The notes below the pieces were generated by a model. The model was not told the origin of the DNA and made no database searches. It saw only the letters and a program-made list of their open reading frames with translations. Source: a virus (Duplodnaviria > Heunggongvirae > Uroviricota > Caudoviricetes). Taken from it: a DNA stretch of 64,000 bases. Position numbers and translations under genes: made by a program. How positions within the stretch are numbered: the first letter of the stretch is position 1; the number at the start of each line of letters is the position of its first letter. Below are positions 3,001 to 61,504 of this stretch, piece after piece. The stretch is from the IMG/VR virus record IMGVR_UViG_3300013121_000002, positions 43,976-107,975 of that record; one strand, 5' to 3'.

Positions 3001-4083
3001 GGTAGCGTTGCCGTGCTCAATCGCGTACTGCCGGGTGATCGCAACCCAATCGCCCGAATTGATGTGCTTCGCACTCACGTCGTGGTAGCTGCGCTTCTCC
3101 CACGGGATCGCCCGGTACACCCACACGCCGCGATCCGGCTTGCCCTGCAAGCTCCTGATCTTGTCGTAGGCTTCCCAATCGGACGTATCGCCCGTGCCGT
3201 AGTAGCGCATTCCCTCCGGGCTGTAGAAATCGGCCGGGTAGGTGCCGTTGAGCGTCACATCGTAGATCGGCGAACCGCTCTCGTGATCCGGCGCGGTGTG
3301 TGCGCCACGATAATCATTCTCACCGTCCGCCGCAGCGCTGGCACCGTCTGCGGTAGCGAAACGACCGCGCTCGTCATGGTAGGGATTGAACTTCTCGACC
3401 GACCCGTCGCACAGGAGCACGACGTAGAACACGCCGTCCTCGGCCTTGCGCAGCGGCACCTCAGTGAAGTTGCGCACATCCTGCAACGTCGCGCCGTTCG
3501 GCAGTCGTTCCGGCGCAGGAAACACCAGACGGCTCTCGATCCACTCGGGTGGGATCGAACGATTGAGCGTGCGCAGCGCACCCCAGCCCAGCATCTCATC
3601 ACGAGTGAACGATTCACGTTCGGACAGCGGCACCCTGATCTTGAGGACTAGTGGCTCAACCGAATCGAAGTCGCCTTCCTCACGGAACCTGCGGCTCGTA
3701 GCCTCGCGCGCCGCCGTCTGTGCCCAATGAAGTGCGTCGGCGGGCTCTGATGCAACGAACACCGAGTTAACGCGCCCGTTGTCACGGAAGAAGCTGTCAT
3801 CCCAATTCCGCTGTGGCGGCGTAGTCAGCAGACCTTCCTTGGTGATCCGGTCGAGCACCGACGCCGCCGTCCCGTGGTACACGAGAAAGCTCTTTCCGGC
3901 GACGAGCACCGGCACATCGGAAATGAACTGTCGAGGAAGGAACTCGTTGTTGCTTGTCCAGCGCCCATTGAGGTCGCGTGGCTGGTTCGGATCGTACTTG
4001 GTGAGATCGACGTAAATGAAATGCCGCTGGCGACCATCCGCCAGCGGCGTCGAGCCGAGGAGCTTCGCGACCGGGCTATTCAT
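1..4083 (-). CDS. Giant modular polyvalent virion protein (MuF-position minor head/injected protein). C-terminus is truncated by the window start, so the protein is >1360 aa. Contains several ADP-ribosyltransferase-like modules (H-G-T motifs of PARP/diphtheria-toxin type) and a GNAT acetyltransferase module, separated by a repeated KFNPYHDERGRF linker.
   Basis: Minus-strand frame is open from an ATG at ~4083 to position 1. The ATG overlaps the portal stop (ATGAATAG). The ORF track lists no minus-strand ORF/stop in this frame. The long plus-strand ORFs 526..1848 and 1939..3651 are Arg/Leu-rich antisense artefacts. Hand translation of 1681-2265 gives a GNAT motif (SPGAGQALMRRALGRLRARGVERVKL...YQRFGF). 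1381-1530 gives FTLWHGTAAKAVASIKANGIKP, which is PARP-like (LLWHGS...GILSQGLRIAP). 3871-3960 gives FLVYHGTAASVLDRITKEGLL. Seven in-frame copies of (T/E)K(F/Y)(N/D)P(Y/N)(H/Q)(D/P)xxGR(F/W) sit at ~4000, 3390, 2900, 2255, 1590, 980 and 330. Confidence 0.7.
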   Translation of the reverse strand, partial: MNSPVAKLLGSTPLADGRQRHFIYVDLTKYDPNQPRDLNGRWTSNNEFLPRQFISDVPVLVAGKSFLVYHGTAASVLDRITKEGLLTTPPQRNWDDSFFRDNGRVNSVFVASEPADALHWAQTAAREATSRRFREEGDFDSVEPLVLKIRVPLSERESFTRDEMLGWGALRTLNRSIPPEWIESRLVFPAPERLPNGATLQDVRNFTEVPLRKAEDGVFYVVLLCDGSVEKFNPYHDERGRFATADGASAAADGENDYRGAHTAPDHESGSPIYDVTLNGTYPADFYSPEGMRYYGTGDTSDWEAYDKIRSLQGKPDRGVWVYRAIPWEKRSYHDVSAKHINSGDWVAITRQYAIEHGNATLGGNFAIAVRKVPARELFTSGDSFQEWGWDDSVTKYDPNQPRDERGRWSPAGGGEQVQTPEFKAWFKDSKVVDAEGNPLVVYHNTHVWQEGDRALGDFTVFDRMASVTQVGRPEGMDTVGSWFSDRPDKEGAGMYASTGTMYPAFLSIQNPWEPADFDEFISMMHSTAGRDPEGTAGTWLRPIGRGSTGELRAWLASEGYDGIVFRQGRDSSRELANQTVWVALEPTQIKSAIGNRGTFDPNDPDLTKFNPYHDERGRFSEAPGGRSAAADGGGIFRSPFTEEQLDDLYERFSNEYRQAEKEFEAFKERRRFEWVGTDRKQDIVNAEWERLDRHRASLAMLENVVAQDRGSLSHSNGELFAFYDSDDPASVTAALSASIDGRTASIDYLGSVSPGAGQALMRRALGRLRARGVERVKLFAIGGSYPVYQRFGFDFVPGHEVDTIAFPRRGDQTASMEMTFDKSAGDWVITKFNPYHDERGRFATADGRSGVADGERHEGDAAQAFTLWHGTAAKAVASIKANGIKPKGGPGADEWAIKNGFPDPEEWIRQQVIGNEEEGEALIEERRASVFLSTSWNNAARFATAVAEMSNSEPVIVEARIPLDAWRVSARADELSGGQHAFRFKGTIRPEWITEVFPLDQRPDMSNLIAAGARKADYQTVFIILFVDGEEVTKFNPYHDERGRFATADGRSAAGDGGVTSSAAFKAWFGNSKVVDANGNPLVVYRGEAQGGDFTDFAEGSNWFTPSREDAAYYAAAGTEPRAFYLKSEKLLDLTDPYAQENREFLNDFASNYDDWIDPQSGEPMTIFEFLDAGALYNLDVDFRHPERNRWNRLMDAARRSGYDGVVANDFSSGQHPTYVVFDPRNIKSADRNDGGFDPTSTNAFKFNPNHDPSNGRFTFGPAGGETKPVFDNRHSLEFFRANGGTIDAYSTESVFLHYRNDYAGPFPSKRDAEWAAIVWAVAYDTAENLNFPPNTIRVTYDPYEVRLGGEVFNASGHAD

Positions 4084-5704
4084 CAACGGCCACCACGAAC
4101 TGCGTGCGGCCACCTTCCTGCATCTGCTCCTGCGCCAGCCTGATCGCCTTGGCGAGGAGAGCCGCCTTCTCAGCAGCGGGCTCCTTCTCCGCCTTGCCGG
4201 GTGCCTTGTTGTCCCCGGTGCCGTTCATCATCGCCGTGATCTTCGCCTCGCGCTCGGCGACCGTAGCAGCATCGACCGAGCCGGGCGGCGGGATGCCCAT
4301 CGACTGGTTGCGCAGCAGAGCCAGTTCCTCCTCGCTGCGCTCGGGCTGGCGCGACACGCCGAGGAGATCGCGCACGTCGTCGATCACCGGATCGTCCGGG
4401 CTCAGCACCGCACCCGCCGTCGCCATGTCGCGTAGCGCCGCCGTCACCTCGGCCACGTCCTTGAACGTCACGTCCTCGGGAACGAACGTCGGCTTGAGCG
4501 CATCGTCGAAGCCATTGAGCTTCCACAGCGGGATGAGAATGTCCCGGTCGAACGCAGCGGCGATGTTGTCGAGCACGGCGTTCGCGATCAGGTACAGGTT
4601 CCGGCTCTTGTCCACCGCGAGCGCACGGTTGCCGCCCTGATCGCCCATCATCAACGATTCGGTGCCGAGGATGCGCGCCATTTCACGCTGAAGCCGGTCG
4701 ATGGCGACGTTCAGTTCGGCGAGGCCAGCGCCGTTGCCCTGCAACAGGTCGATGCCCCACTGCATCGCCCCGGCGATCTTGAGCCCGTCCGCCGCCTGCG
4801 ACTGGTAGGGCACGCTGTCGAGCACGAGCGACGTGTCGCTCTGCTTCATTTCGAGTTGGACAAAATTCTTGAGGTCGTCGATCAGGCCCTGCGCCTGATC
4901 CTTGGTCAGCTTGCCGTCCTTGACCATCTGCTGGAGCAGGCTGATCGGAGCCCGGCCAATCGGCGTGCCGCGCAGGTCGCGCTCGAACGCACGCGCCTCC
5001 AGTTCGAGGTAGGTCTTGAAACGCTCGTAGGGCTCGGCGAGGTGACGGAACATCCCCAGCCCCTCCGGGCTGTCAGTCAGCGTGTCCTCGACGAGGTAGA
5101 CGAGCTTGCCACGCGGCAGGCCGAGCACGACGCCGGTCATCGGGTGCCGCTGCCACACGCCGGTCACGACACCGTTCTCATCGACCTCCCAGCGATCCAC
5201 CGTGTGCTGCGGGCGACCCTCGATGTCGGCGAAACCAATCTGGCCGTCGTCCCGCTTCTTGGCGGTCCACTCCTGCAAACCAAATCCATGGAAACGATAC
5301 ATGCCCGCGCGGCGCACAATGCGCGGCCACGTCGTCGCCATGTCATGCATCACGTCCTCAACGAACTGCGCCGCCTTCTCCGCTTCAGGCGACACCTTGC
5401 CATCGACCTCGGCAGGCTTCACCGTCCACTGCGGGTGACCGAGCAGGTTGAGAAAATGATGAACCGAGGCGGCGACGATACTGACGTTCGTCGCGATCTC
5501 GGATGCCGTGCGGTACTTCTCGGTGCCGGTCCATTTGGACGACCGCTCGAATGTGCGAACCAGTCCGCCATAGATGGCGGTGCCGCCCGTACCCATTTCC
5601 TTGAACGGTGCGATCCGCGGCACCGTCTGGCCGGTAACGGCAGTCAGCACGCGCTTGAGCAAGCTCGGCGGACGAACGATGGAATCGCTCACCTTGGCGT
5701 CCAT
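4076..5704 (-). CDS. Portal protein (putative)
   Basis: 542-aa ORF sits between the terminase large subunit and the MuF-position polyvalent protein. Size and acidic C-terminus are typical of portals. The call rests on synteny and size only. Confidence 0.55.
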   Translation of the reverse strand: MDAKVSDSIVRPPSLLKRVLTAVTGQTVPRIAPFKEMGTGGTAIYGGLVRTFERSSKWTGTEKYRTASEIATNVSIVAASVHHFLNLLGHPQWTVKPAEVDGKVSPEAEKAAQFVEDVMHDMATTWPRIVRRAGMYRFHGFGLQEWTAKKRDDGQIGFADIEGRPQHTVDRWEVDENGVVTGVWQRHPMTGVVLGLPRGKLVYLVEDTLTDSPEGLGMFRHLAEPYERFKTYLELEARAFERDLRGTPIGRAPISLLQQMVKDGKLTKDQAQGLIDDLKNFVQLEMKQSDTSLVLDSVPYQSQAADGLKIAGAMQWGIDLLQGNGAGLAELNVAIDRLQREMARILGTESLMMGDQGGNRALAVDKSRNLYLIANAVLDNIAAAFDRDILIPLWKLNGFDDALKPTFVPEDVTFKDVAEVTAALRDMATAGAVLSPDDPVIDDVRDLLGVSRQPERSEEELALLRNQSMGIPPPGSVDAATVAEREAKITAMMNGTGDNKAPGKAEKEPAAEKAALLAKAIRLAQEQMQEGGRTQFVVAVDE

Positions 5705-5778: not shown

Positions 5779-6243
5779 TCAGCCGTCGTCGAGGACTGCC
5801 CCCAGCAGATTGTCCTGCATCACGACGGCGATAATCTGCGCCGCCAGCCTGCCAATCGTCACGTCACGGTGGGCTGCCTCGTCGGCGAGGCTCGTCCAGA
5901 CGCTCTGCTGCACCTTCAGCACCACCTTGCGCTCGGTGTGCTTCGACACCTTGGCTCGCGGATCGCCGCGGTGCCGCGCCTCGAACACGATAGTCCGAAC
6001 GCCCGCACGCGTGATCCCTGAAACGAGGTTGGTGATCTCGCGACTGGTCAGTCCTTTCGCCCACAGATCGAGGATGCGTTCGTCACGCTCGCGCCGACTG
6101 AACGGTGCGCGTCGCCGAACCACCGCTCCATTGATTGCTTCCACCCCCGCCACTCCAATCATCGGTTCGGGCGCAGAACAATTGGGCCGTAAATGCCAAC
6201 CAGCGGTTCGTCGATGTCGTGCCACGGGAAGAACGACATGCAC
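5779..6243 (-). CDS. Small HTH-domain protein (start possibly internal, ~6160)
   Basis: Helix-turn-helix-like segment RILDLWAKGLTSREITNLVSGITRAGVRTIV. The ORF overlaps the 3' end of the terminase gene, so the true start is likely downstream. Confidence 0.3.
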   Translation of the reverse strand: MHVVLPVARHRRTAGWHLRPNCSAPEPMIGVAGVEAINGAVVRRRAPFSRRERDERILDLWAKGLTSREITNLVSGITRAGVRTIVFEARHRGDPRAKVSKHTERKVVLKVQQSVWTSLADEAAHRDVTIGRLAAQIIAVVMQDNLLGAVLDDG

Positions 6244-7940
6244 ACGGCATCGCCGAGGTTGGGCGACTTCGTTCCTTCAGGCGTCTTGTCCACCACCAGC
6301 TTCATCGTGCGCGTGTCACGCGTGATGATCGGCTGGCTGAGTTCAGTCTGGAGCTTGCGGATCAGCGGCAGAGTTGACGGTAACGAAATCAGATTGTCGG
6401 ACGGCGCGGTGAAACCGGGCTCGGTGATACAGCGATGCGTCAACTCGAAACGACGGCGCAACGACCACCACGCCTGCGCCTTGAGATTGTAATAAAAGTT
6501 CTTGTTGATCGGGCTCTGCGGATCACCGTCCACCACACGGTCGAACGGATCGAGCGGCTGGGCACTGGCGAACCACGGCGTCAGGATCAGTCCCTTCGGC
6601 AGCAGACCCTCATCGCGCAGCCGATTCGCTTCCGCCTTGACGCCAGCGCCGACACCAATGGCGTCGTACTGGAGGTTCAGCGGCAGCGTGTCCTCACACG
6701 CTGCTACAGCGCGACGCGTCGTCCGGCCGGTGTCCCGCTCACCCCACTCATCCACAAGCCGCAGGATCGAGCCCTGCCGCTTGGCAAGCGCATTCGTGTC
6801 CAGTCCCTGATCGGCCACGTCGAGGCCAGCGAACCATGCGCCAGTCTGGTCGAAGCCGGGAATGCGCAGGTGGGCATCGAGCGCCGACTGAACCCACGCT
6901 GCCGGGATGATGACACCCTCGGCAGCACCGGCATAGTCACGTTCCGTCTCGCGGGCGAACACATGCGCCATGCCAGCGTTCTCGAAAAACTCCTTGCGCT
7001 GCTGATGCCACGTCCCCGTCTTGAGCGGGTGATCGCTCCAGTCGAGAACAAACACGTTCGTCTTGAATTTGATTACTGGCTTGTCCGGCACCCAATCGAC
7101 GCCAGCCTGACGCTTGCGCCAGAACACCGTACCGAGGCCGGACACCGACGAAATGTCGATGCGCACACGCGTGTTCTCAGACAGCGCCGCTTCAACCGCC
7201 TCGGGCCGTTCGAGGTGAGCCGCCTCGTCAACGAAATAGACGAGCGTGCGACCGCCGCGGCCGATGTTGTCGCCAAGCTCGCCAGAGATCGTCGAGCCGT
7301 TCGGCAGGTTGAGGCAGCGCATGTAGAACAGGTGCTTCGACTCATCGAACCCATCGGGCTTGAGGAAGTCGGGCAGCCCGCGAATCAGCATCCGTATTTT
7401 CTCAAAGATGCTGTTGGGGTCGCCGAGCTTGTCCACCTGCTCCTGTTTGTTCGAGCCCCACCCGATAGCCGCGCCGGGCCAGAACAGCCACAGCCATACG
7501 GTAATCGCCGCGCAGACCCACGTCGCGCCCATGTCGCGCGACTTCTCGATCAGCCCACCCGCCTCGCCAAAGATGCACGCCAGCACGAAGCGAACCAGTT
7601 CCTCCTGACGAGGGAACAGGATCAGCGGAAAGCGCGCTGGCTTTCCTAACGAAATGTTGCGCGGGTCGTAGGTATCGCACCAGTGATTGATGAACCGGAT
7701 GCACCCATCGACACCGTTGGCGTAGTAGGCTCGGGCAGACGGGATCGACGCCGGATTGAGTTCGAGCCGGGCCAGCGTGCGCTCACGCCACGCGGCGACA
7801 CCGACATAGTCGGGCGGCCATTGATCCTTCGGGCAGGTAGCCGGGGCAGTGACGTTGACCTGACCGCGCTCCTCCAGCTTCTTGAGCCGTAGCTGCCCAA
7901 GCGCCGGGGTGAAATCGACCTGTGAGCGCGGGTCGTTCAT
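6159..7940 (-). CDS. terL: Terminase large subunit (TerL)
   Basis: 593 aa. P-loop-like GEAGGLIEKSRDMGATW. Walker B/coupling motif LVYFVDEAAH. The C-terminal half is acidic and nuclease-like. Position is upstream of the portal gene. Confidence 0.85.
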   Translation of the reverse strand: MNDPRSQVDFTPALGQLRLKKLEERGQVNVTAPATCPKDQWPPDYVGVAAWRERTLARLELNPASIPSARAYYANGVDGCIRFINHWCDTYDPRNISLGKPARFPLILFPRQEELVRFVLACIFGEAGGLIEKSRDMGATWVCAAITVWLWLFWPGAAIGWGSNKQEQVDKLGDPNSIFEKIRMLIRGLPDFLKPDGFDESKHLFYMRCLNLPNGSTISGELGDNIGRGGRTLVYFVDEAAHLERPEAVEAALSENTRVRIDISSVSGLGTVFWRKRQAGVDWVPDKPVIKFKTNVFVLDWSDHPLKTGTWHQQRKEFFENAGMAHVFARETERDYAGAAEGVIIPAAWVQSALDAHLRIPGFDQTGAWFAGLDVADQGLDTNALAKRQGSILRLVDEWGERDTGRTTRRAVAACEDTLPLNLQYDAIGVGAGVKAEANRLRDEGLLPKGLILTPWFASAQPLDPFDRVVDGDPQSPINKNFYYNLKAQAWWSLRRRFELTHRCITEPGFTAPSDNLISLPSTLPLIRKLQTELSQPIITRDTRTMKLVVDKTPEGTKSPNLGDAVCMSFFPWHDIDEPLVGIYGPIVLRPNR

Positions 7941-7941
7941 T

Positions 7942-8124
7942 TCACAGCAGGCCCTTCTCCTGCGCCAGCCATTTGGGCAGCGTCACGATAGTGCGCCGCC
8001 CCTCGTTGCTGATCTCGATCTGCGACTTCGGTAGCCAGACCTCACGCGTGCCGTCGCTCACCCGGACGGCGGCGTCCGTCTCGACCGTCACATGCACGTC
8101 AATGTCCGTGAGGTCACTGCGCAT
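7942..8124 (-). CDS. Hypothetical small protein
   Basis: 60-aa ORF immediately upstream of terL, packed with its neighbours. Confidence 0.3.
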   Translation of the reverse strand: MRSDLTDIDVHVTVETDAAVRVSDGTREVWLPKSQIEISNEGRRTIVTLPKWLAQEKGLL

Positions 8125-8389
8125 CCGGTAGCTCCGCTTCCATCATCGTCAGGGCAGCTTCAGGCAGCGCGGCGATCTCGGCGGCGTCCAGTGCTGCCAG
8201 TTCGTCGAGCGCGCGGCGCTGCGCTTCGGTACGCGTGCTCTGCTGCTCACGCTCAATCGCCCCGACGCGGAGCTTCATGTAGTCCGTGGCGAGACGAACA
8301 AGGTCGCCGTCAGGATCATGACCGGCGTAGCGACTGAGGATCAGGTGGCAGATTTGCGTTGCGATCCGCGTCTCGTCGTTGCTGCTCAT
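8114..8389 (-). CDS. Hypothetical protein
   Basis: 91-aa ORF with an acidic C-terminus, packed between small genes. Confidence 0.4.
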   Translation of the reverse strand: MSSNDETRIATQICHLILSRYAGHDPDGDLVRLATDYMKLRVGAIEREQQSTRTEAQRRALDELAALDAAEIAALPEAALTMMEAELPDAQ

Positions 8390-8401
8390 TTTGTTAGCCC
8401 C

Positions 8402-8560
8402 CTACATCAACAGGTCAACGAGCACGAGGCTGACGCCGACCGCAGAAACCAGCCCGGCGATGAACACGTCGGCAATCCCGTCATACGACCACGCGATGCG
8501 CCACCAGCCGATCAGGCTGAAAATTATCAAGACGATGCCAATACCACCGAGCACGCTCAT
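8402..8560 (-). CDS. Small hydrophobic membrane peptide (~52 aa, holin/spanin-like candidate)
   Basis: Hand translation: MSVLGGIGIVLIIFSLIGWWRIAWSYDGIADVFIAGLVSAVGVSLVLVDLLM. Shorter than the ORF-track cutoff. Coordinates are approximate. Confidence 0.35.
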   Translation of the reverse strand: MSVLGGIGIVLIIFSLIGWWRIAWSYDGIADVFIAGLVSAVGVSLVLVDLLM

Positions 8561-8934
8561 GCCTTCACCTCCTCCGGGCTCAGACGCTTGCGTTGCACCG
8601 GCCGCGCCTCAACCATCCTGCGGAACTTCACTGGAGCCGCGTCGAGGCCCCAGTATTTCACCGTCGCCCAGATCGCAAACTCCCTAGCGATCATCTGGCC
8701 GTAGCCGGTCGCCGCGTCGATCAGGCGCTCGATCCCGGTCGTGGGCGGTGCGAACTTCATCCCGGTGTCGGCGGTGAACTCGGCGAGCATGTTAGGCTCA
8801 CCTCCCGCCCAGCGCAGGAACGCCGCCCATGCCATCGACATCAGCGGATCGTCAGCATCTTCCAGATCGACCATAGGTCCATGTCTGCGTGTTGGTGTTG
8901 TAAACGTAACCGAGCGGCGGTCGGTCGAGGCCAA
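8557..8934 (-). CDS. Hypothetical protein
   Basis: 125-aa ORF. The N-terminus may start at the internal Met MVDLEDADDPLMSMAWAAF. Confidence 0.3.
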   Translation of the reverse strand: MASTDRRSVTFTTPTRRHGPMVDLEDADDPLMSMAWAAFLRWAGGEPNMLAEFTADTGMKFAPPTTGIERLIDAATGYGQMIAREFAIWATVKYWGLDAAPVKFRRMVEARPVQRKRLSPEEVKA

Positions 8935-9199
8935 TCAGCATCAGCAGCATGTTGGTGATCGGCAGATGCCCGCTGACCAGCCGCTCGTACTCGATCTGCG
9001 CGATTGCGCTGCTGTAGATGTTCATCCCCCAGACCCGAACGTCATCGACAGCAGCGAGCCGACCGTGATCCCGGCCAGCAGCATCGCAGCGCGCCGCGAG
9101 CGCGTGCCGGGCACCGTGACGAGCACCAGCAGGAACGCCATGAACAGGGCGACGATTGCGAGGCTGCCATTCGTGACCTGCATCAGTGGCTGACCCCAT
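8852..9199 (-). CDS. Hypothetical protein with a hydrophobic C-terminal segment
   Basis: Track ORF. The C-terminal half NIYSSAIAQIEYERLVSGHLPITNMLLMLIGL looks protein-like. The N-terminal Arg/Ala-rich part is doubtful. Confidence 0.25.
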   Translation of the reverse strand: MGSATDAGHEWQPRNRRPVHGVPAGARHGARHALAARCDAAGRDHGRLAAVDDVRVWGMNIYSSAIAQIEYERLVSGHLPITNMLLMLIGLDRPPLGYVYNTNTQTWTYGRSGRC

Positions 9200-9740
9200 T
9201 CCCGTTCATCGTCGGCGGCGTCACACCAATGATGCGCTCGAACTCGCTGGGATCGGCGTTGTACGTCATCGGCGACGGTGGCGCATTCCCCGACACGCCG
9301 CCCAGCAACCGCTCAAGCTGCTCGCGCTGCTCAGGCGTGAAGCGGGTCAGCATTTCGTCGGTGAACTGGAACACCTTCACGGGCGGTGGCTGAGCCTGCA
9401 CACGGACTTCCAGCGGCAGCAGCTTGCCCATCAGGCTAAGGAACTGCTTCGGATACCGCTTGCACATTTCCCGCAGCCATCCCTCCAGACCGTCCTTGCC
9501 CTTCCCATCGCTGCCGTTGAGTTCCGCCGCAGCCTTGATGAGTTCGGACAGTACCCGCACATCCTTGCCGCGGGCACCGACCGGGCGTCCGCTACCGAGC
9601 GGTCCCTTGCGTGGTAGCGGAGCCATTGCATTGGCAGCCCGATGCAGCGCCGAGGACAGTTTGGGTGATACGCGCTTGCCGCCTTTTCTTTTAGGGGCCG
9701 CATCGGTGGATTCGGGTGACAGACGCTTACGCTCGACCAT
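9183..9740 (-). CDS. Hypothetical basic protein (N-terminus MVERKRLSPE). Terminase small subunit is a candidate by position only.
   Basis: 185 aa. Lys/Arg-rich N-terminus. Shares the N-terminal heptapeptide MVERKRL with two other genes in the window. Confidence 0.35.
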   Translation of the reverse strand: MVERKRLSPESTDAAPKRKGGKRVSPKLSSALHRAANAMAPLPRKGPLGSGRPVGARGKDVRVLSELIKAAAELNGSDGKGKDGLEGWLREMCKRYPKQFLSLMGKLLPLEVRVQAQPPPVKVFQFTDEMLTRFTPEQREQLERLLGGVSGNAPPSPMTYNADPSEFERIIGVTPPTMNGNGVSH

Positions 9741-9761
9741 TTGCTTAGCATTCCGATTTCG

Positions 9762-10328
9762 TTAGTTCAGTTGCGTCGTCGCGGGCTCTGGCGGCGGCTC
9801 GATGTCGGCTCCGGGAATATCGTCATAATCCTCCAGCCAGACGACGCGATCAGCCTCGGCGATGAACGAGATCATGGTGTCAAGGGTCTGGCGGGCTGCA
9901 TGACCGCGAACCGGCTGGGTGGCCCTGTCCGCATCCTCGTCCTCCAGCCACTCGAACTGGGATTCGGGATCGACCGGCTTGATGTCCTCGGGCGCGCTGA
10001 CCTCCTCGTAGTCCGGGTCGCCATAGACCACGGCGAGGCTGACGAGCAGTTTGATGAGTTCGTCGGTGTTGTTGCGGACGTTCCACAGGCCGACCGCGGC
10101 TTCCTCGCTCAGCATGATCGGGCCGGTGACGCCACAGGCTTCACAGGCCACGGCGTAATTCTGGCTGACCAACTTCACCTTGGCGGCGCTGTGATCGCAA
10201 AACGGACAGGGACGCAGTTCGCTGTCAACCATCGTCATCCTCGCTCCGCACGCGCGTGAGGGTTCGGTTGCTGTGAATGAGGAGAAGCCCGCGGTCGTCC
10301 TCGACGACGTAGCGAGCCTGTCCGTCAC
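9762..10328 (-). CDS. Lar-family restriction alleviation-like protein (likely true start ~10238) fused to an acidic C-terminal tail
   Basis: MTMVDSELRPCPFCDHSAAKVKLVSQNYAVACEACGVTGPIMLSEEAAVGLWN matches the Lar zinc-ribbon pattern CPFCG...C..C..GP....EA...WN. Confidence 0.6.
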   Translation of the reverse strand: MTDRLATSSRTTAGFSSFTATEPSRACGARMTMVDSELRPCPFCDHSAAKVKLVSQNYAVACEACGVTGPIMLSEEAAVGLWNVRNNTDELIKLLVSLAVVYGDPDYEEVSAPEDIKPVDPESQFEWLEDEDADRATQPVRGHAARQTLDTMISFIAEADRVVWLEDYDDIPGADIEPPPEPATTQLN

Positions 10329-10653
10329 GCTTGTTGAAGGCGGCGACCACTACGCCCCGGAAGGTGTAGTCGCCCCCGGTCTTTTCAACAACGTCACCGG
10401 GAGAGAAAACCACCTCGGGGAGATCAGGCAGCTTCTTCTTCGGCCACGCCAGCATGTCGGCAGCGTGCTGGCGGGACAGGGCTACGATATTCGGATCGCC
10501 CCCGGCGCGCTCGACGAGGTCGGCATAGTTGAGCACCGCCGCAGCGGCGAACTGGTCCTGCCCGCGGAGCAGGAACACCGGCTCATCGTCCGGGATCAGG
10601 CGGGCATTATCCTCGATTCGGCCGTTGTAGTCAGCGCGGGCGTGACGCATCAC
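10225..10653 (-). CDS. Hypothetical protein
   Basis: 142-aa ORF with diverse composition. Confidence 0.4.
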   Translation of the reverse strand: MMRHARADYNGRIEDNARLIPDDEPVFLLRGQDQFAAAAVLNYADLVERAGGDPNIVALSRQHAADMLAWPKKKLPDLPEVVFSPGDVVEKTGGDYTFRGVVVAAFNKRDGQARYVVEDDRGLLLIHSNRTLTRVRSEDDDG

Positions 10654-10754
10654 CTTCCTCCGTAACCGTTGGATTTGCTCATTTTTCCACTGAGCCGATG
10701 GTTCGCTACCGGCAAAGAATTGGCCGCATTCGCCCTGAAAAACAAGGGCTTTGC

Positions 10755-11396
10755 TTAAACGAACAGGCCCTTGGGCGGTCGCCGGATCGGCGCGGACGGG
10801 ATGCGCCGGGTAATCGGATTGCCCTCGGCGTCGAACAGTTCCGCCTGATCGCCGAGGCTGATCCAGCCCGGAGCACCGCTGCGGGCGAACAGTTCGAGGT
10901 AGGGTCCGGGGACCAGTTCGACGATCCTGTCGCGCACCTCATCCGGCTTGCGGGAGTGCTCGCGCAGCGGCGAGACGATGAGGCGGCGGACGCTGGCGCT
11001 CTGACGCTCCGGGGAACCGCGCGTGGCGAGCAGGCAGAGTTCCGGGTTGGCTCTGGTCCAGTAGCCCATGCCGACGAAAAAGTCCGCGAGGTCGCGCGGC
11101 TTCTTGTTCAGCTTCACCCAATGGAACGCAATCGTCTTGTAAACGAAACCCCACGATGCGATCAGGTCGAACGCCTGCGGCAGGTGGGTATCCGGCACCC
11201 ACAGGAACAACACGCTGTCATCGAGCGCCATGTCGCCGACCGGGAGCGCCTTGATGTCGGCAAAGCTCATCGTGTCGTAGTGCGCCTGCGGGGCGCGGCC
11301 TTCACCGTCCTCGCTGTACGTCTCGAAATGCCACGGAGGATCGACCAACAGCGCCCCGGCTTTGACGCGGCGGCGTGCTAACGAAATGACGTTCAC
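10755..11396 (-). CDS. MT-A70-family N6-adenine DNA methyltransferase
   Basis: DPPW catalytic motif (LLVDPPWHF). LFLWV motif. REHSRKPDE motif, typical of phage Dam/MT-A70 methylases. Confidence 0.8.
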   Translation of the reverse strand: MNVISLARRRVKAGALLVDPPWHFETYSEDGEGRAPQAHYDTMSFADIKALPVGDMALDDSVLFLWVPDTHLPQAFDLIASWGFVYKTIAFHWVKLNKKPRDLADFFVGMGYWTRANPELCLLATRGSPERQSASVRRLIVSPLREHSRKPDEVRDRIVELVPGPYLELFARSGAPGWISLGDQAELFDAEGNPITRRIPSAPIRRPPKGLFV

Positions 11397-11608
11397 GGAA
11401 AGGCCGACACCAGCACCGGGACAACCCGATAGAACTGGGGATCGTCGCCGGTCGTGCCGACGAAGATGTCGATTGCGGCCTGCGCCATTTCGATGGTCGG
11501 GAACAGGCGGGGCACGCCTTCCATGCTCATCAGCAGACCGGGCTGAATACGCGGCTTGTCTGGTCGCGGGCGACTATCCCACACACCGAATAGCTTACCG
11601 CGACCCAT
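11393..11608 (-). CDS. Hypothetical small protein
   Basis: 71-aa ORF overlapping the start of the methylase gene by 4 nt. Confidence 0.3.
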   Translation of the reverse strand: MGRGKLFGVWDSRPRPDKPRIQPGLLMSMEGVPRLFPTIEMAQAAIDIFVGTTGDDPQFYRVVPVLVSAFP

Positions 11609-11670
11609 GCTGCTGTTACCTTATGTAAGTAAAACGCTGTACACACATGCAAAAGGTGACAAACCGGGTG

Positions 11671-11713
11671 CTAAATCAAATGAGGCCGGGGCATCTTCCC
11701 AAATGCCCCGGCC
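11671..11713 (-). terminator. Rho-independent terminator candidate (minus strand)
   Basis: Perfect 11-bp stem GGCCGGGGCAT/ATGCCCCGGCC with an 8-nt loop. On the minus strand it is followed by CUCAUUUGAUUUAG. Confidence 0.4.
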
Positions 11714-11788
11714 CCATTCTCCTCACCCTACCACCTAACTACCCCCCGCAGAAGAAAAGGGGCAGCACGCGAACCAAACCACAAACCC

Positions 11789-11816
11789 TTGACGAATGCA
11801 ACAGGCCGGGTAAGTT
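11789..11816 (+). promoter_or_regulatory. Sigma70-like promoter candidate
   Basis: TTGACG-N16-TAAGTT in an ORF-poor, lower-GC stretch. Confidence 0.25.
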
Positions 11817-11819
11817 GAC

Positions 11820-12031
11820 CTTCTTGTATCCACCCGACTGTCGAGCCGAGCGCGTTCGGTGACTGCACGCCCTTCGGGGCAGGCTTGAAGCGACAGCTAA
11901 GGATGACCGGACAACCTCGGGATAGGCCGGTTGCAGAGTTGATCCCTAAGACGCCGCCCATCAGCCCGTGGGACAGATCAGCAGGGCTAGGAAGGGGACC
12001 GCAGGACGCTGCGGTCCCCTTTCCGTTTTCA
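11820..12031 (+). ncRNA. Candidate small structured RNA (about 200 nt), promoter to terminator
   Basis: No credible ORF. Contains a GCCC-UUCG-GGGC tetraloop hairpin. Ends in the hairpin GGGGACCGCAGGACGCUGCGGUCCCC followed by UUUCCGUUUUC. Confidence 0.25.
11995..12031 (+). terminator. Rho-independent terminator (plus strand)
   Basis: 10-bp GC-rich stem, GACG loop, then TTTCCGTTTTC. Confidence 0.45.
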
Positions 12032-12232
12032 GGCCGCCGCCACGTTGTGGTGTTCGAGGCAGTCGATGGTGACACACCGCCCCTCGTGATCCACCTGAAT
12101 GAAACCACAGCCCTCGCAGATCACGGTCGCAAACAGCCCAGCCTTGGTGTCGGCCTCGGTGCTGATACCGGCCAGATCGTGGTAGTCCTCCCCGAAGGAA
12201 TCCACCGAGCACTGCTTGCAGAAGTCGGCCAC
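12029..12232 (-). CDS. Small Cys-rich zinc-ribbon protein
   Basis: 67 aa with CKQC...CEGCG...C..C. Confidence 0.45.
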   Translation of the reverse strand: MADFCKQCSVDSFGEDYHDLAGISTEADTKAGLFATVICEGCGFIQVDHEGRCVTIDCLEHHNVAAA

Positions 12233-12235
12233 GGC

Positions 12236-12514
12236 TCAGGCCCCCCGGTCGAACACATGCCAAACGAATGGCTGTGCAATCACCGAACCGACGTACACCC
12301 CATCCCCCGGCACTGGGTGTCCCGTACCCCTGATCGCGAAGCGATGAAGCACGCGGGGTGATTCGCTGTCCACCAACGCCCACAAAAGGATTTCAAGGTG
12401 GCCAGAAGGAGCCACAAAAAGCGGCGCAGCCCCTTCCGGCATTTCGATCTGCTGCTCATCAGTGACGATGAGCTTAAACTTCCAGATCGTTTTCATTTCG
12501 ACCCTCCTTCGCAA
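12236..12514 (-). CDS. Hypothetical protein
   Basis: 92-aa ORF. Plausible start at MKTIWKFKLIVTDEQQIEMPEG. Confidence 0.45.
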   Translation of the reverse strand: MRRRVEMKTIWKFKLIVTDEQQIEMPEGAAPLFVAPSGHLEILLWALVDSESPRVLHRFAIRGTGHPVPGDGVYVGSVIAQPFVWHVFDRGA

Positions 12515-12613
12515 ATGTAGTGGTTCCGGTGGAGTAGCGCCAATGTGTGAGTAGAACGATCAGTACGCGCTGCACAACGGGGTAGTGCTACCCCGTTGTG
12601 TCAGCCACGAGAC

Positions 12614-13333
12614 TCACTCCTGCGCGAGCCGGGCCTTGTCGTCGTCGCTGTATTCCATCGCCGACCCAACGAGCCCGTAGGCACCGCGCAGACCCGCCGT
12701 AACCTCCATCGTCGCCCTCATGTTGCGTACCGAGGAGCGCACCGTCTGCCTCGCGTCGTTGCCAAGCGAAGCTGCCTGCTCGGCGTTGTCGAAGCTCGCG
12801 CCGAGGAAGATCACCTGCCAGCCCTTGGCCCGGCACGCATCGAGCAGCGCCTTCGCACCATCGCGCGTGAGTTCGGTGCTGGCGTTCTCCTGACCGTCCG
12901 TGACGATGATGATCGCCACCTTGTCGTACTGGACGCCGCCGATGCCCTCATTGGCGAGGTTGACGATCCTGCCGACCGCATCGTTGAGCGGGGTCCAGCC
13001 GCGCGGGATCGCGTCCTCGTTCGACACCGGCCGCCACGTCGGCGGCGTGATCCGGTCGCGGATCACCTCGAACTTGAACTCGCCCGCTGGCTTGTCGAAC
13101 GTCGCGAGCGTCACCCCGGTGTCCACCTTGTCGGCCGCGAGCTTCGCGACGTAGGCGTTGATCGCCGCCAGCGATTCGGTCCACTTGCCCTGCTCGCTCA
13201 TCGACTGCGAGCGGTCGAGAAGAATGAAATCATGTTGCATCTGGTTTCTCCGTTGGTGCGGCCAGCCGAACCGGCCAGCCCAGCTTTTCCGATGTGGCAT
13301 TGAACTTGGCAGCCACCGCAGCGTCGAGATCAA
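12614..13333 (-). CDS. von Willebrand factor A (vWA) domain protein (likely start ~13240)
   Basis: MIDAS-like motif DRSQSMS, TPLNDAV, IIIVTDGQEN. Confidence 0.7.
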   Translation of the reverse strand: MISTLRWLPSSMPHRKSWAGRFGWPHQRRNQMQHDFILLDRSQSMSEQGKWTESLAAINAYVAKLAADKVDTGVTLATFDKPAGEFKFEVIRDRITPPTWRPVSNEDAIPRGWTPLNDAVGRIVNLANEGIGGVQYDKVAIIIVTDGQENASTELTRDGAKALLDACRAKGWQVIFLGASFDNAEQAASLGNDARQTVRSSVRNMRATMEVTAGLRGAYGLVGSAMEYSDDDKARLAQE

Positions 13334-13673
13334 TGCCCTCCGACAGTGCGATCAGGTCAGCGCATATCACCACGTCGGCCAGTTCCTCGGCAAGCTGCTC
13401 CTTGGTAGCGCGGGAGCCGCGCAGGCCAAGCCGTTCGCGGTCGAGCTTCTTGATGATGTTGCACGCCTCGCCGGTTTCGCCAGCGAGTTCGTTGCCACGA
13501 TAGGACAGCGAGATCACGTTGCCCGCGTCCCACAAGCGCTGCCGATGCTCATTCGCCGAACGCAGCGACGAATGATAGGTGACGCCGGGTTCCGGCCACA
13601 TATTCGCGGGCATCGTCCGCCCGCTGGGGTCTGACTTGTCCATCGTCACCCCCGCCTGCCGAGCAGGTTCCAC
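13230..13673 (-). CDS. MazG-like nucleoside triphosphate pyrophosphohydrolase
   Basis: LSYRGNELAGETGEACNIIKKLDR...LAEELADVVICADLIAL is characteristic of the MazG/NTP-PPase all-alpha fold. Confidence 0.65.
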   Translation of the reverse strand: MEPARQAGVTMDKSDPSGRTMPANMWPEPGVTYHSSLRSANEHRQRLWDAGNVISLSYRGNELAGETGEACNIIKKLDRERLGLRGSRATKEQLAEELADVVICADLIALSEGIDLDAAVAAKFNATSEKLGWPVRLAAPTEKPDAT

Positions 13674-14035
13674 TCCGCTGCCTGCGCGAGCCGGTTGAGG
13701 TCCACAAGCGCCTGTTCGAGGAGGCCGAAGATTGCATCGGCTGGGGGTATCGCATCCTTGTTGAACGCATCGCGAAGCGCATCAATATGCTTGGCGATTG
13801 TCACCTGCTCATCGGCGTGGCGCGCAGCCAGCACTTCTTCGGGGCTATTGCTCATTTCGTTTCCTTGGTTTCGAGATACACCGGCTGAATGCCAGCCGCC
13901 GCACAGGCTTCGGTATAGCCCTCTCGCGTATTCGGGTAGGTCTGCCCTGCCACAACGAAAACGGAACCAGTCCCATCGCACCGCGAGCAGGTGTCCATGC
14001 CGCGATAACCGGAACCGAAATCGCAATGCCAGCAC
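13646..14035 (-). CDS. Hypothetical protein (probable start ~13855, MSNSPEEVLAARH...)
   Basis: The N-terminal part of the track ORF is Arg/Trp-rich and looks spurious. The C-terminal 69 aa are protein-like, with a GAAACGAAATGA junction to the upstream gene. Confidence 0.4.
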   Translation of the reverse strand: MLALRFRFRLSRHGHLLAVRWDWFRFRCGRADLPEYARGLYRSLCGGWHSAGVSRNQGNEMSNSPEEVLAARHADEQVTIAKHIDALRDAFNKDAIPPADAIFGLLEQALVDLNRLAQAAEWNLLGRRG

Positions 14036-14067
14036 TTGACGGCAGTCAGGTCAGGCGCAGCACTCAT
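13852..14067 (-). CDS. Small zinc-finger protein (CxxCxGxG, DnaJ-type)
   Basis: CWHCDFGSGY...CSRCDGTGS. Ends KETK with a TGA/ATG overlap to the next gene. Confidence 0.5.
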   Translation of the reverse strand: MSAAPDLTAVKCWHCDFGSGYRGMDTCSRCDGTGSVFVVAGQTYPNTREGYTEACAAAGIQPVYLETKETK

Positions 14068-14230
14068 TTCGTTTCCTTCGGTGGGATCGGCTGCGACAGC
14101 AGGACTTTCAGATGATGCGGGACGTAAACGATAACACCCTCAGGCTTCTCCCACGCCACCCAATCATCCCAATCGAGGTCCGGGCGGCGCAGCCAGCCAA
14201 ATGACTCAGGCGAGCCGCTTCGGTACTCCA

Positions 14231-14470
14231 TCACATCTCGTAGATGGCGATCATCGTGTTGTGCGGATTGGCCTCCTTGAGCGCCTGCACCAGCATGAGA
14301 TGGAACTTCGCCATCGGGATCGACAGGTCCGCAAACGCATTCACCGGCAGCTTGCAGCCGGTGTGCCCGAGGAGTTGACCCGCGTATGGATATGCCAGCG
14401 CGAGCGGCACCCCAAAGTGCTTCGCAATCGACATCACCGGATAGCTCTTGCTCGGTACGAACCCATCCAT
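14231..14470 (-). CDS. Hypothetical protein
   Basis: 79-aa ORF with unbiased composition. The overlapping 168-aa ORF 14064..14570 in another frame is Arg/Gly-rich. Its C-terminal 55 aa (14064..~14228) may be a separate small gene. Confidence 0.35.
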   Translation of the reverse strand: MDGFVPSKSYPVMSIAKHFGVPLALAYPYAGQLLGHTGCKLPVNAFADLSIPMAKFHLMLVQALKEANPHNTMIAIYEM

Positions 14471-14475
14471 TTCGT

Positions 14476-14733
14476 TTACTTCCCCCTCGGTTCAGCAGAA
14501 ACCACCCACACCGGGATAAGCTCGAATGTGCCTGCCTCGTCAGGCTTACCCATGAAGCGTTCCCGATCACGAAGATAACGTGCCAGCGTTAGCTCGGCGA
14601 TGGTGCGATCAGAAAACAGCCGAGGGATCGCTTCCATCGTCTGGAGCAATCCCGGAACGGAAGCACCATTGGGACCAACCGGATGCTGGCGCGTATCGAG
14701 CACGCCGAGGAGCTTGATGGGTTTGATTATCAT
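14476..14733 (-). CDS. Hypothetical protein
   Basis: 85-aa ORF. Confidence 0.4.
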   Translation of the reverse strand: MIIKPIKLLGVLDTRQHPVGPNGASVPGLLQTMEAIPRLFSDRTIAELTLARYLRDRERFMGKPDEAGTFELIPVWVVSAEPRGK

Positions 14734-14969
14734 CCCTCGACTGGCGTCCCATCCGGGTTGAAGAACAGGCCCACTTCCTCGCCGGGCACCGGCTTCTCAA
14801 GCGGCAGCAGGCGCTCGGGCTCGTCGAGGTGTTTGCCTGCCTCGATCTCGTCGGCGATCTCGTGCGCCGTGGCGCTCTCGCGCGTGCGGCGGCGCATGTA
14901 GTTGGCCGCCTGCTTCCAGTCCGCCCGCAGGGACTTCGCGACCTCGCGGAACACCGGCTTGCTCATCAA
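14730..14969 (-). CDS. Hypothetical protein
   Basis: 79-aa ORF, acidic. Confidence 0.4.
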   Translation of the reverse strand: MMSKPVFREVAKSLRADWKQAANYMRRRTRESATAHEIADEIEAGKHLDEPERLLPLEKPVPGEEVGLFFNPDGTPVEG

Positions 14970-15535
14970 TCAGCATCCTCGATCAGCACGGGCAGCTTCG
15001 CCAGCAGCAGATCGTCGAACGTGACGAGGTTCATCCCCAACTGCGGCTGCGATAAGCATACCTTGGAGCGCAGATTGAGTAAGTTCGTGCCCGCTGCGTT
15101 CAGTACCACCAACGTCGGCAGCCGGTTCTGGCGCGCGATCAGCATGGGCAGCTTCTTGTAATCGTTAGCTTCGCTGCGCGCCACACCCCACACCCGCGCC
15201 AACATCCCGGTATCCCGAAACAACCCGGCGAGATCGAGCGTCTTGAGGTGCTTGCACTCGACATAGAAGCGATCCGTAAGGCGGTGGCCCTCGGGCGCGA
15301 CCGCCGAGATGTCACCCGCCTGCCGACTGAGGTTGACGCCCTTGCGCTTCGCCAGCGTAGCCCGGCCGCCGCTCATCGCCGACCGCCACAGACAATCCTC
15401 CTTCTCGCCTCCAGTGATCCACAGGGACAGGCGCTTGCACACCTCGCGCTCGAACGCGGAGCCCTTCTGCTTCCCACCACCGGACTTCACTAACCATCCT
15501 CGCGAATGAATGCTGCGAATATGATAATAGGCCAA
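14966..15535 (-). CDS. Holliday-junction resolvase, Hjc-like PD-(D/E)xK nuclease
   Basis: KGSAFEREVCKRLSLW resembles archaeal Hjc KGSAVERNIVSRL. A downstream ...ECKHLK segment is the counterpart of the Hjc E-x-K catalytic motif. Confidence 0.55.
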   Translation of the reverse strand: MAYYHIRSIHSRGWLVKSGGGKQKGSAFEREVCKRLSLWITGGEKEDCLWRSAMSGGRATLAKRKGVNLSRQAGDISAVAPEGHRLTDRFYVECKHLKTLDLAGLFRDTGMLARVWGVARSEANDYKKLPMLIARQNRLPTLVVLNAAGTNLLNLRSKVCLSQPQLGMNLVTFDDLLLAKLPVLIEDAD

Positions 15536-15762
15536 ATCAACGTCACGAGCACCAATCCAAACAGGAAGTCCCCAACTCCCAAAAATGGCGGACGCTTCAG
15601 ATCGCGCCTGCTAACAGGCAGGATGTTCTGCCCCCACGGGCGCAACATCGCGGCCCAAAAGCCTATGAAGGTGCCCAAGCCTGCCGCGACATACGCCTTG
15701 ATGAGGTCACCCACATCAGCCCCGTCTGTCGAACTTATGGTAGATGCGGTCGAGCGTCGCAA
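15490..15762 (-). CDS. Small membrane protein
   Basis: Two hydrophobic segments (FLFGLVLVTLIWPIIIFAAFI). Confidence 0.4.
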   Translation of the reverse strand: MRRSTASTISSTDGADVGDLIKAYVAAGLGTFIGFWAAMLRPWGQNILPVSRRDLKRPPFLGVGDFLFGLVLVTLIWPIIIFAAFIREDG

Positions 15763-15804
15763 GAAACGATTTGATCCAAGCGATTTCCTGCTTCTCTACG
15801 TCGG

Positions 15805-16395
15805 TCACGATGCCTTACTCCGCGCCATGAAGCTCTCCTGCATCTTGTTCAGCAATTGCTTCATAACACTACGCAACAGATTTTGAATATCCAAACTGCT
15901 CGGACCAACGGCGGCGAGCGCCTGATCGCTAATGAGGTAGGCCAACTCGGGCAGCTTATCCCGGCCGCCACCGGACGTGACCTCCCACATGCGAATCATC
16001 TTGGCGACATTGTCCGGGCGATCCTCGACTGCCGCCACCAACACGTTCAGTTCGACCGCAAGCGCATCGAAGCTGACCGTATGATCCACAACCGCGTCAG
16101 GCTCTGCCCAACGCAACGGGCGCTGGATCGGCCAGCGCAAGGGCTTGCCCCTCTGACCACTGATCGCCCTGACCGCCCGCTGTGCTGCCGTCACCGTCAG
16201 TGCCGTCTCGTTACCGAGCGCGCGGCGCAGTCGCTCCTCAAGCTCGAATAGCAGCCCCTCGGCCTCCTGAGCCCGCCGACTGGCATCATTCGCCAGCGCG
16301 GTCATCTCCGCCAACTGCCGCTCCTTCTCCGCCAACTGGCTCTCAGCCTGCCGCAGCTTGCGACGCGCGGTAAACAGCATCAGGCGGAGGTTCAT
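15805..16395 (-). CDS. Hypothetical coiled-coil protein
   Basis: 196 aa. The N-terminal QAESQLAEKERQLAEM segment is heptad-like. Confidence 0.45.
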   Translation of the reverse strand: MNLRLMLFTARRKLRQAESQLAEKERQLAEMTALANDASRRAQEAEGLLFELEERLRRALGNETALTVTAAQRAVRAISGQRGKPLRWPIQRPLRWAEPDAVVDHTVSFDALAVELNVLVAAVEDRPDNVAKMIRMWEVTSGGGRDKLPELAYLISDQALAAVGPSSLDIQNLLRSVMKQLLNKMQESFMARSKAS

Positions 16396-38239: not shown

Positions 38240-38272
38240 GGGGCGGGAACCAGTTTCCCGCCCCTTTCGTTT
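38240..38272 (+). terminator. Rho-independent terminator
   Basis: GGGGCGGGAA-CCAG-UUUCCCGCCCC followed by UUUCGUUU. Confidence 0.55.
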
Positions 38273-40208: not shown

Positions 40209-40209
40209 C

Positions 40210-60108: not shown

Positions 60109-60226
60109 AATCGTTGGCAGCTTAGTTGTCATCGGCCTACTTGTTCTCGGCGTTGATTATCTTCGCCGGATCATCCAGCGGCTCCTCGATAAGCGAGAGC
60201 CGCCCAACACAGGGGAAAACACATGA
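60092..60226 (+). CDS. Small membrane peptide (44 aa) preceding the SPFH gene
   Basis: MRLVIEIVGSLVVIGLLVLGVDYLRRIIQRLLDKREPPNTGENT. RBS GGAGGAAACGAATG. Overlaps the next start (ATGA). Confidence 0.35.
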   Translation: MRLVIEIVGSLVVIGLLVLGVDYLRRIIQRLLDKREPPNTGENT

Positions 60227-61409: not shown

Positions 61410-61504
61410 CAAAAAGGGGAGGGTTTCGACCCTCCCCACTTGCTAATGAATTGACCCCGCCTATATGGTGGTGATGACAACCCGGTAGGAGGGGTTTCAT
61501 TACC

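Follow-up and report, generated by a model that had tools for sequence, protein, structure and literature searches.

Phage accessory regions often carry orphan DNA methyltransferases, MazG-like enzymes and Lar-type zinc ribbons, and phages routinely use an orphan adenine methyltransferase against restriction. Members of all three groups, together with a stand-alone von Willebrand factor A (vWA) protein, lie at positions 9762-13673 of a 64,000-nucleotide stretch of a phage genome (Caudoviricetes; positions 43,976 to 107,975 of IMG/VR record IMGVR_UViG_3300013121_000002), which is termed the window hereafter. A preliminary description had interpreted this segment as a dedicated anti-defence locus. 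The present analysis instead suggests, with moderate confidence, that it is a heterogeneous patch of independently mobile accessory genes at the junction of the replication and packaging gene strings, and not a single co-evolving unit. The adaptation of the phage to restriction is clearest in the whole-sequence loss of some 30 type II recognition sequences. The phage is probably virulent and probably infects alphaproteobacteria.

Among the closest described systems, Atd1, a MazG-like enzyme from Pectobacterium phage PcCB7V, has been reported to deplete (p)ppGpp and to give protection from TIR-STING toxicity (bioRxiv 10.1101/2022.06.09.495361), whereas a cyanophage MazG has no (p)ppGpp hydrolase activity, its preferred substrates being dGTP and dCTP (PMC6850273); on (p)ppGpp hydrolysis, the two tested phage MazG enzymes thus disagree. 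The founding Lar protein is RalR, a non-specific DNase toxin that cuts both methylated and unmethylated DNA, and whose role in restriction alleviation has been called unclear (PMC4041452). At the level of the genome sequence, avoidance of recognition sites works against orthodox type II restriction enzymes, not against those of types I and III, and is stronger in non-temperate phages (PMC6286503).

Organization and linkage of the locus

All genes of 9762-13673 are located on the minus strand, as seen from the list of open reading frames (ORFs) and from family searches. Ribosome-binding sites, together with the gene calls of the source contig (a JGI metagenome contig of 107,975 bp), served to refine their start codons. 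In the order of transcription, the locus comprises:

13230-13601, minus strand: MazG-like all-alpha nucleoside triphosphate (NTP) pyrophosphatase (123 residues in the source gene call; the open frame reaches a GTG at 13673)
12614-13240, minus strand: stand-alone vWA protein with an intact metal ion-dependent adhesion site (MIDAS) (PF00092, E = 3.9e-7; phrog_7371, E = 2.3e-27; likely start at 13240)
12236-12496, minus strand: DUF7352 protein of 86 residues (PF24043, E = 1.8e-24; phrog_3848, E = 7.3e-21; ATG after an AAGGAGG ribosome-binding site)
12029-12232, minus strand: cysteine-rich, zinc-ribbon-like protein of 67 residues, termed Zn67 (phrog_2210, E = 7.6e-27; only weak zinc-ribbon matches in Pfam)
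11609-12028: non-coding gap
11393-11608, minus strand: protein of 71 residues, termed g71, the first gene after the gap (from the ORF list; its stop overlaps the start of the methyltransferase gene; GC content at third codon positions (GC3) of 0.74, coding-like)
10755-11396, minus strand: orphan MT-A70 (beta-class, DPPW) N6-adenine DNA methyltransferase (PF05063, E = 2.1e-26; phrog_359, E = 1.3e-73; PADLOC MTase_II, E = 6.6e-54)
10225-10650, minus strand: two-domain protein of 141 residues, termed g142 (N-terminal domain of ~80 residues and C-terminal SH3/Tudor-like barrel)
9762-10232, minus strand: Lar-like protein of 156 residues, with a Lar-type zinc ribbon (residues 1-55) and a 101-residue acidic tail (PF14354 above the cut-off)

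The MazG-like gene overlaps the start of the vWA gene by 11 nucleotides. Downstream lie the genes of the large terminase (6159-7940) and the portal protein (4076-5704), and upstream those of a resolvase-like protein, a UvsX-like recombinase, a single-stranded DNA-binding protein (SSB), a clamp loader, DNA polymerase A, a primase, an SNF2 helicase and a DnaB-like helicase, in agreement with the earlier placement of the locus between the packaging and replication modules. The consecutive minus-strand genes of the preliminary description are correct as to the strand, but the run is broken by the non-coding gap; similarly, its gene list holds for the four named families, but omitted two small genes, at 11393-11608 and 12029-12232 (phrog_2210). 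The codon-position GC content of the island genes follows the pattern of the phage core genes. Because of this native codon periodicity, and because the avoided restriction sites described below have 0 copies over 8001-16000 (67 expected), the island genes are long-resident in the phage.

Linkage of these families was followed through phage records, viral contigs and metagenome loci. Search of 9000-15000 by blastn against phage records returned short gene-level matches only, and no contig sharing the whole region emerged from the terminase- and vWA-based scans of viral contigs or from the MT-A70 scan of metagenome contigs. Likewise, scanning reference genomes for the terminase yielded no prophage relative. 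Seven contigs with a vWA homologue of 58-63% identity have none of the other island genes, 32 contigs with a terminase of 51-60% identity have none of the island genes at all, and the 80 metagenome loci surrounding the nearest MT-A70 homologues (43-61% identity; 490 kb in total) contain no other island family. The neighbours at these MT-A70 loci, where recognisable, are replication genes. Loci reached via g142, DUF7352, Zn67 or MazG carry that one family only, except for the contig L048, which is the only one of more than 130 related loci with two island families (MazG and MT-A70, 3.5 kb apart).

L015 and L016 come closest to the window, sharing with it a terminase of 60%, a polymerase of 51-68% and a UvsX-like recombinase of 53% identity. 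Their interval between the UvsX-like recombinase and terminase genes consists of about 2 kb of unrelated small genes, compared to about 9 kb here, and the island genes are absent from both contigs as well as from 30 further terminase relatives. Since the families are unlinked elsewhere and the nearest relatives lack them, the stretch is lineage-specific and accessory, and built of independently mobile genes.

The same observations bear on the alternative of a dedicated counter-defence island, in which the methyltransferase and the Lar-like protein would act against restriction, MazG would deplete (p)ppGpp or other signals and thereby block abortive infection, and the vWA and small proteins would inhibit immunity. 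All four families are present, in an accessory region absent from the nearest relatives, and in L048 a span of 5.5 kb includes MazG, MT-A70 and another methylase; yet this contig is the single exception among the comparison loci. The study of Atd1, besides giving a precedent for the MazG component, found methyltransferases near anti-defence genes (bioRxiv 10.1101/2022.06.09.495361), and protein countermeasures are to be expected in this phage because site avoidance fails against type I and III enzymes (PMC6286503). Taken together with the interruption by hairpins and the replication contexts described in the following two sections, we consider such an island unlikely, and favour the reading as a mixed patch.

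The non-coding gap

The 420-bp gap shows no coding signal, having GC contents of 0.60, 0.56 and 0.60 at the three codon positions, compared to GC3 values of 0.60-0.90 for the neighbouring genes (0.66-0.89 within 9762-13673). Two ORFs of 126 and 140 residues that span it were rejected as genes, as they have no codon periodicity. Four elements could be distinguished in the direction of transcription:

11992-12021, minus strand: GC-rich, terminator-like hairpin with an 11-bp stem and a weak T tail, starting 8 nucleotides after the stop of the Zn67 gene
11719-11991, minus strand: structured non-coding spacer of about 270 nucleotides between the hairpins, a possible small RNA or regulatory leader
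11679-11718, minus strand: intrinsic-terminator-like hairpin with 16-nucleotide arms, 94% complementary, and an 8-nucleotide loop (inverted repeat I10 and fold)
11609-11678, minus strand: AT-rich leader (42% GC over 11609-11680; genome 62% GC), a candidate promoter or 5' untranslated region

The hairpin at 11992-12021 is paired in both the minimum-energy and the centroid folds. Following the hairpin at 11679-11718, the minus strand reads TGATTTAG; TCATT is the end of the preceding arm. Because the gap is non-coding and carries two terminator-like hairpins, the island is probably split into two expression units, which argues against a single counter-defence operation of its genes. In the simplest reading, the upstream half (MazG-like, vWA, DUF7352 and Zn67) would close the replication-side unit as the tail of that string, ending at the hairpin right after Zn67, and the downstream half (g71, MT-A70, g142 and Lar-like) would open, past the second terminator, a unit that continues into the terminase and other packaging genes.

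The gap, and not the proteins, might itself be the key element, either as a small RNA with its own terminator or as a site for packaging or regulation that immediately precedes the late genes. The fold of 11609-12035 has a z-score of -2.9 and is more stable than 100 of 100 shuffles, although this score is largely due to the two hairpins. The spacer of about 270 nucleotides without coding signal, enclosed by two strong hairpins and followed by the AT-rich leader, would suit such an element, but the gap has no Rfam match with E < 0.1 and no similar DNA among the phage records searched by blastn. Moreover, a consensus scan of the gap found no sigma-70 promoter match, and picked up neither of the terminator-like hairpins. 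We therefore regard a principal role of the gap as very unlikely and retain the reading of a patch of accessory genes, in which the gap separates two gene strings.

The vWA protein and the MazG-like enzyme

The vWA protein reaches 30.9 bits against PF00092 (cut-off 23.8). The residues of its MIDAS (D-x-S-x-S, T and D, corresponding to D9, S11, S13, T83 and D115) are invariant in nine homologues, including actinophage proteins of 27-31% identity, and the vWA call of the preliminary description stands. In five of the seven viral contigs with homologues of 58-63% identity (L001, L002, L004, L005 and L007 of L001-L007), the vWA gene sits between primase and polymerase, inside a homologous replication module. 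The module common to the window and these five contigs consists of a DnaB-like helicase, an SNF2 helicase, a primase, a 376-residue protein, PolA, a clamp loader and an SSB, with identities of 23-47%. More distant homologues, roughly 30% identical, are found among DNA-metabolism genes in 201 phage records. Judging from this gene context, the vWA protein would most likely bind a protein partner via its Mg2+ site, and the family behaves more like the companion of a particular type of replication module than like an independent gene of an island. Our literature search found no paper linking phage vWA proteins to anti-defence, which counts against assigning this protein to an immunity-inhibiting island.

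Two further observations concern the vWA homologues. A protein of ~180 residues without a family match accompanies the vWA gene in six of the seven loci (e.g., 7756-8379 and 8701-9243 of L001); as a conserved vWA partner in the window it was rejected, since a profile search found no homologue there. In addition, some actinophage records label the vWA homologue "DNA ligase" (e.g., gene 60 of Microbacterium phage CrazyRich, 5040-5672 of L042), and sister actinophages label the same protein hypothetical. The ligase label would seem to be an error of annotation, since the protein consists of a vWA domain that carries a MIDAS.

Domain searches upheld both the Lar and the MazG assignments at the family level. 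The MazG-like protein falls just under the Pfam threshold of PF03819 (20.5 bits, cut-off 22; E = 6e-4) and is also under that of PF12643 (20 bits, cut-off 27; E = 8.5e-4), and the call is backed by phrog_229 (E = 3e-7), by homologues and by a sequence motif. There are 1714 homologues; the 120 listed are 60-79% identical, and many of these carry PF03819 or PF12643, or bear the name MazG-like or NTP pyrophosphatase. The ExxE...ExxD metal-binding motif is present (AGETGEA ... AEELADV) and aligns with the motifs of dCTP pyrophosphatase 1 (DCTPP1), the best solved relative. Among three contigs with MazG homologues, two place the gene among replication genes: in L046 it adjoins genes of a PD-(D/E)XK nuclease, RNase H, a primase-polymerase, a ligase and PolA, and in L048 it adjoins a beta-clamp gene; the third has no recognisable neighbours. 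The enzyme would most likely hydrolyse NTPs and deoxy-NTPs, and thereby clean or reshape the nucleotide pool for phage DNA synthesis.

The earlier proposal that this MazG counters (p)ppGpp-based defences has the precedent of Atd1 in its favour, but gains nothing further from similarity searches. Search of the window MazG by tblastn (E <= 1e-3) matched 14 phage records only, with no match to the Atd1 phage and no Pectobacterium phage among the 14 records. One Synechococcus phage is found among the matches (MinM2, 65 kb), which need not be the biochemically tested cyanophage, whose MazG is inactive on (p)ppGpp (PMC6850273). With only 14 phage records, none of them from Pectobacterium, neither tested enzyme's substrate result can therefore be transferred to the window MazG. 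Altogether, the genes around the vWA and MazG homologues speak for DNA replication and nucleotide supply and not for a cluster that counters defence.

Several points weigh against a mixed patch with replication-related members. Anti-defence clusters vary in content, and unconserved linkage is thus still compatible with a shared anti-defence role. Short zinc-ribbon relatives at the comparison loci may have escaped the tblastn searches. The hairpin at 11992-12021 has no good T tract, and the scan of the gap gave no promoter. The vWA protein is 58-63% identical to its homologues, compared to 23-47% for the surrounding replication proteins, and this high conservation could equally reflect a replication role or the horizontal exchange of an accessory gene favoured by selection. 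Finally, Atd1 provides the example of a phage MazG-like enzyme that is active against a defence system (bioRxiv 10.1101/2022.06.09.495361).

Even with these points, what survives of the anti-defence interpretation is the methyltransferase and the accessory, variable nature of the locus, and not the single dedicated unit; the gap with its hairpins, the lack of recurrent linkage and the replication contexts of vWA and MazG speak otherwise. The finding as first described adds little, the locus being ordinary for the accessory region of a phage, and nothing here shows cooperation of these genes.

The MT-A70 methyltransferase and restriction-site avoidance

The methyltransferase is unambiguous from PF05063, phrog_359 and PADLOC, as the preliminary description had it: the PF05063 match is full-length (profile positions 4-172 of 172) and the catalytic DPPW motif is present. 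Homologues occur in 514 phage records, all below 60% identity, and the best relative among the 80 metagenome loci is 61% identical. Its direct neighbours, of 71 and 141 residues, have no nuclease or defence match in Pfam, PHROGs, NCBIfam or PADLOC, in line with its orphan status, although a new kind of nuclease among them is conceivable, and the methyltransferase is the sole match of the locus to the PADLOC defence-system models. By family knowledge, the methyltransferase is the only well-grounded anti-restriction function in the stretch; the Lar-like protein has an anti-defence standing at the zinc-ribbon level only. The enzyme is expected to methylate adenines in newly made phage DNA, shielding the progeny at sites that cannot be removed from the sequence.

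A motif scan found no second methyltransferase in the window. An SPPY-containing ORF at 61277-61918, considered as a second methyltransferase that would explain the retained CGCG-type palindromes, was rejected as it has no Pfam match. Separately, the 62-kb JGI contig L048 carries at 7863-11436, in a row, MazG, a beta-clamp, an IS605 OrfB/Cas12f-like TnpB, MT-A70 and an N6_N4 methylase.

Motif counts, made over the 64-kb window in search of the methyltransferase target and given below as observed/expected, revealed an extensive loss of restriction sites. In total, 35 of the 64 palindromic hexamers have 0 copies, and 17 of the absent ones are each expected at least 13 times, summing to 547 expected and 0 observed. 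The absent hexamers include CGATCG (0/65), GCCGGC (0/57), GTCGAC (0/54), CCCGGG (0/54), CTCGAG (0/47) and GGCGCC (0/46); moreover, CCWGG (0/145), GGTCTC/GAGACC (0/18) and all RGATCY and SAGCTS hexamers are missing. Palindromes are not avoided in general: the counts of all NCGCGN hexamers, CGCGCG, CGGCCG and TGCGCA match expectation (324/365), and there is no avoidance of the tetramers GATC, TCGA and CCGG. Among non-palindromic hexamers with an expectation above 15, only 3 of 1573 are absent. The purge is uniform in every 8-kb bin, that of the island included, and none of 30 comparison loci approaches it.

The remaining proteins, namely the MT-A70 methyltransferase and perhaps the Lar-like protein, would plausibly cover what such editing of the sequence cannot. 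The purge raises interest in the methyltransferase, and possibly in the acidic Lar fusion, as candidate counters to restriction systems of types I and III. The fusion and the genome-wide loss of restriction sites are the points that deserve follow-up.

The Lar-like protein

The Lar-like protein starts at the ATG at 10232, matching the source gene call P0053 (156 residues), and not at the GTG at 10328. Its zinc ribbon matches PF14354 with E = 5.4e-8 and 33.4 bits (cut-off 28.6), over residues 37-86 of the longer ORF and profile positions 2-58 of 58, and phrog_599, "Lar-like restriction alleviation protein", with E = 1.3e-8. It stays under the cut-off of NCBIfam TIGR03655 (35.9 against 39.6). 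Alignment with relatives showed that C9, C12, C30, C33, W50 and N51 are invariant. The tail (residues 56-156) contains 26 acidic (Asp and Glu) against 6 basic (Lys and Arg) residues, with a net charge of -20 and an isoelectric point (pI) of 4.05. The earlier description of a Lar-type ribbon with an acidic tail is therefore borne out in both parts.

Searches of 5.8 billion clustered proteins and 1.8 billion representatives found no homologue of the tail and no full-length homologue of the Lar-like protein. A total of 298 cluster representatives match the ribbon only, many of them with tandem ribbons or unrelated tails. The tails of the relatives cannot be aligned, and at least one relative (P0280) likewise ends in an acidic run. 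A single-sequence structure model has a predicted local distance difference test (pLDDT) score of 40 and is unusable.

As a family member, the Lar-like protein is a plausible candidate for modulating type I restriction-modification enzymes. A bolder proposal is that the ribbon with its acidic tail constitutes a new kind of anti-restriction protein directed at type I and III systems, the tail mimicking DNA or blocking the enzyme; we hold this to be quite improbable. If it were true, the fusion would complement the near-total removal of type II sites as well as the orphan methyltransferase nearby.

The protein might alternatively be a RalR-type zinc-ribbon protein that cuts or binds DNA and is turned against host DNA, or a toxin, with the tail as an inbuilt inhibitor or a partner-binding segment. 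Residues 6-57 do match the NCBIfam model of the RalR endodeoxyribonuclease toxin (NF007260, E = 2.9e-6), but the score of 27.8 bits is far under the equivalog cut-off of 113. RalR cleaves DNA regardless of methylation and its part in restriction alleviation is described as unclear (PMC4041452), which would suit a toxin; no antisense small RNA or other antitoxin was identified. Moreover, the Lar family is a short zinc ribbon that occurs in many architectures, tandem repeats included, and its function may not transfer in either direction. A nuclease or toxin of this kind is accordingly a long shot, and the name Lar carries little functional information.

Small proteins and neighbouring features

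The segment 12236-12514, which had been described as unannotated, corresponds to DUF7352, a family found in 35 phage records that are all annotated as hypothetical. Zn67 has a homologue in Stenotrophomonas phage Bhz59, again among hypothetical genes, and g71 has no match in Pfam, PHROGs, NCBIfam or PADLOC. There are 52 homologues of g142, most of ~80 residues, which cover its N-terminal half; this domain is thus widespread as a stand-alone phage protein, and the C-terminal domain is common to P0045. The AlphaFold model of g142 has a pLDDT of 82, with no significant PDB match and only unnamed viral matches. Homologues, records and fold give no functional lead for the suggestion that g142 and the 12236-12514 gene are new anti-defence proteins, and the model of g142 is a further point against an island of immunity inhibitors.

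Just downstream of the locus lies one further gene:

9183-9740, minus strand: basic protein of 185 residues, pI 10.1 (phrog_11043, of unknown function, E = 2.8e-9)

It shows weak similarity, in a GRPxGxR motif, to the gene upstream of terminase in L016, and is possibly a small terminase or a DNA-binding protein.

Upstream of the MazG gene, a minus-strand protein of 71 residues (13852-14067) contains CxxCxGxG-type zinc-finger repeats that resemble the central domains of anti-TRAP and DnaJ; it reaches none of the cut-offs (NCBIfam RtpA, 28.5 against 65; Pfam Anti-TRAP, E = 0.024). A near-identical translation-start region of 16 nucleotides, AAGGAAACGAAATGAG on the coding strand, recurs at 13851-13866, 14063-14078 and 14466-14481, and belongs to three small genes of the minus strand that lie immediately upstream of the one for MazG. 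This shared start region shows the ORFs 13646-14035 and 14064-14570 to be over-extended, the real genes encoding about 70-80 residues.

Elsewhere in the window, an SbcC/SbcD-like pair (AAA_23/SMC_N and calcineurin-like phosphoesterase) and the genes of DUF7873 (E = 6.8e-96), DUF932 and SPFH/Band 7 proteins are found at 38271-41208, 42889-43626, 57631-58611 and 60223-61206, together with two tRNA genes, for Asn at 55019 and for Gln at 63503.

Comparison with known systems

The stretch resembles the anti-defence gene clusters of phages and mobile elements in being a variable, lineage-specific site between conserved modules that holds a methyltransferase and a family named for restriction alleviation. 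It differs from them in that an anti-defence role is well grounded for a single component only, terminator-like hairpins interrupt it and no recurrent linkage of the families was found in the comparison loci.

The individual proteins have their own counterparts. The MazG-like enzyme shares the single ExxE...ExxD catalytic module with phage single-domain MazG-like or DCTPP1-type enzymes, Atd1 and the cyanophage MazG included, and is similar to proteins annotated as MazG-like in Rhizobium, Erythrobacter and Pantoea phages. The Lar-like protein has in common with Lar/RalR of the E. coli Rac prophage, and functionally with Ral of phage lambda, a CxxC...CxxC ribbon of ~55 residues that ends in W-N-x-R; compared to Lar/RalR, it is much longer (156 against about 64 residues, the family being about 55-65), bears the acidic tail and scores below both NCBIfam cut-offs. 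The methyltransferase resembles the orphan phage MT-A70 enzymes of phrog_359, annotated as "MunI-like" or "DNA methyltransferase", in its full domain, its DPPW motif and the lack of a partner nuclease. Here, it heads the packaging-side string, whereas several of its relatives sit inside the replication module.

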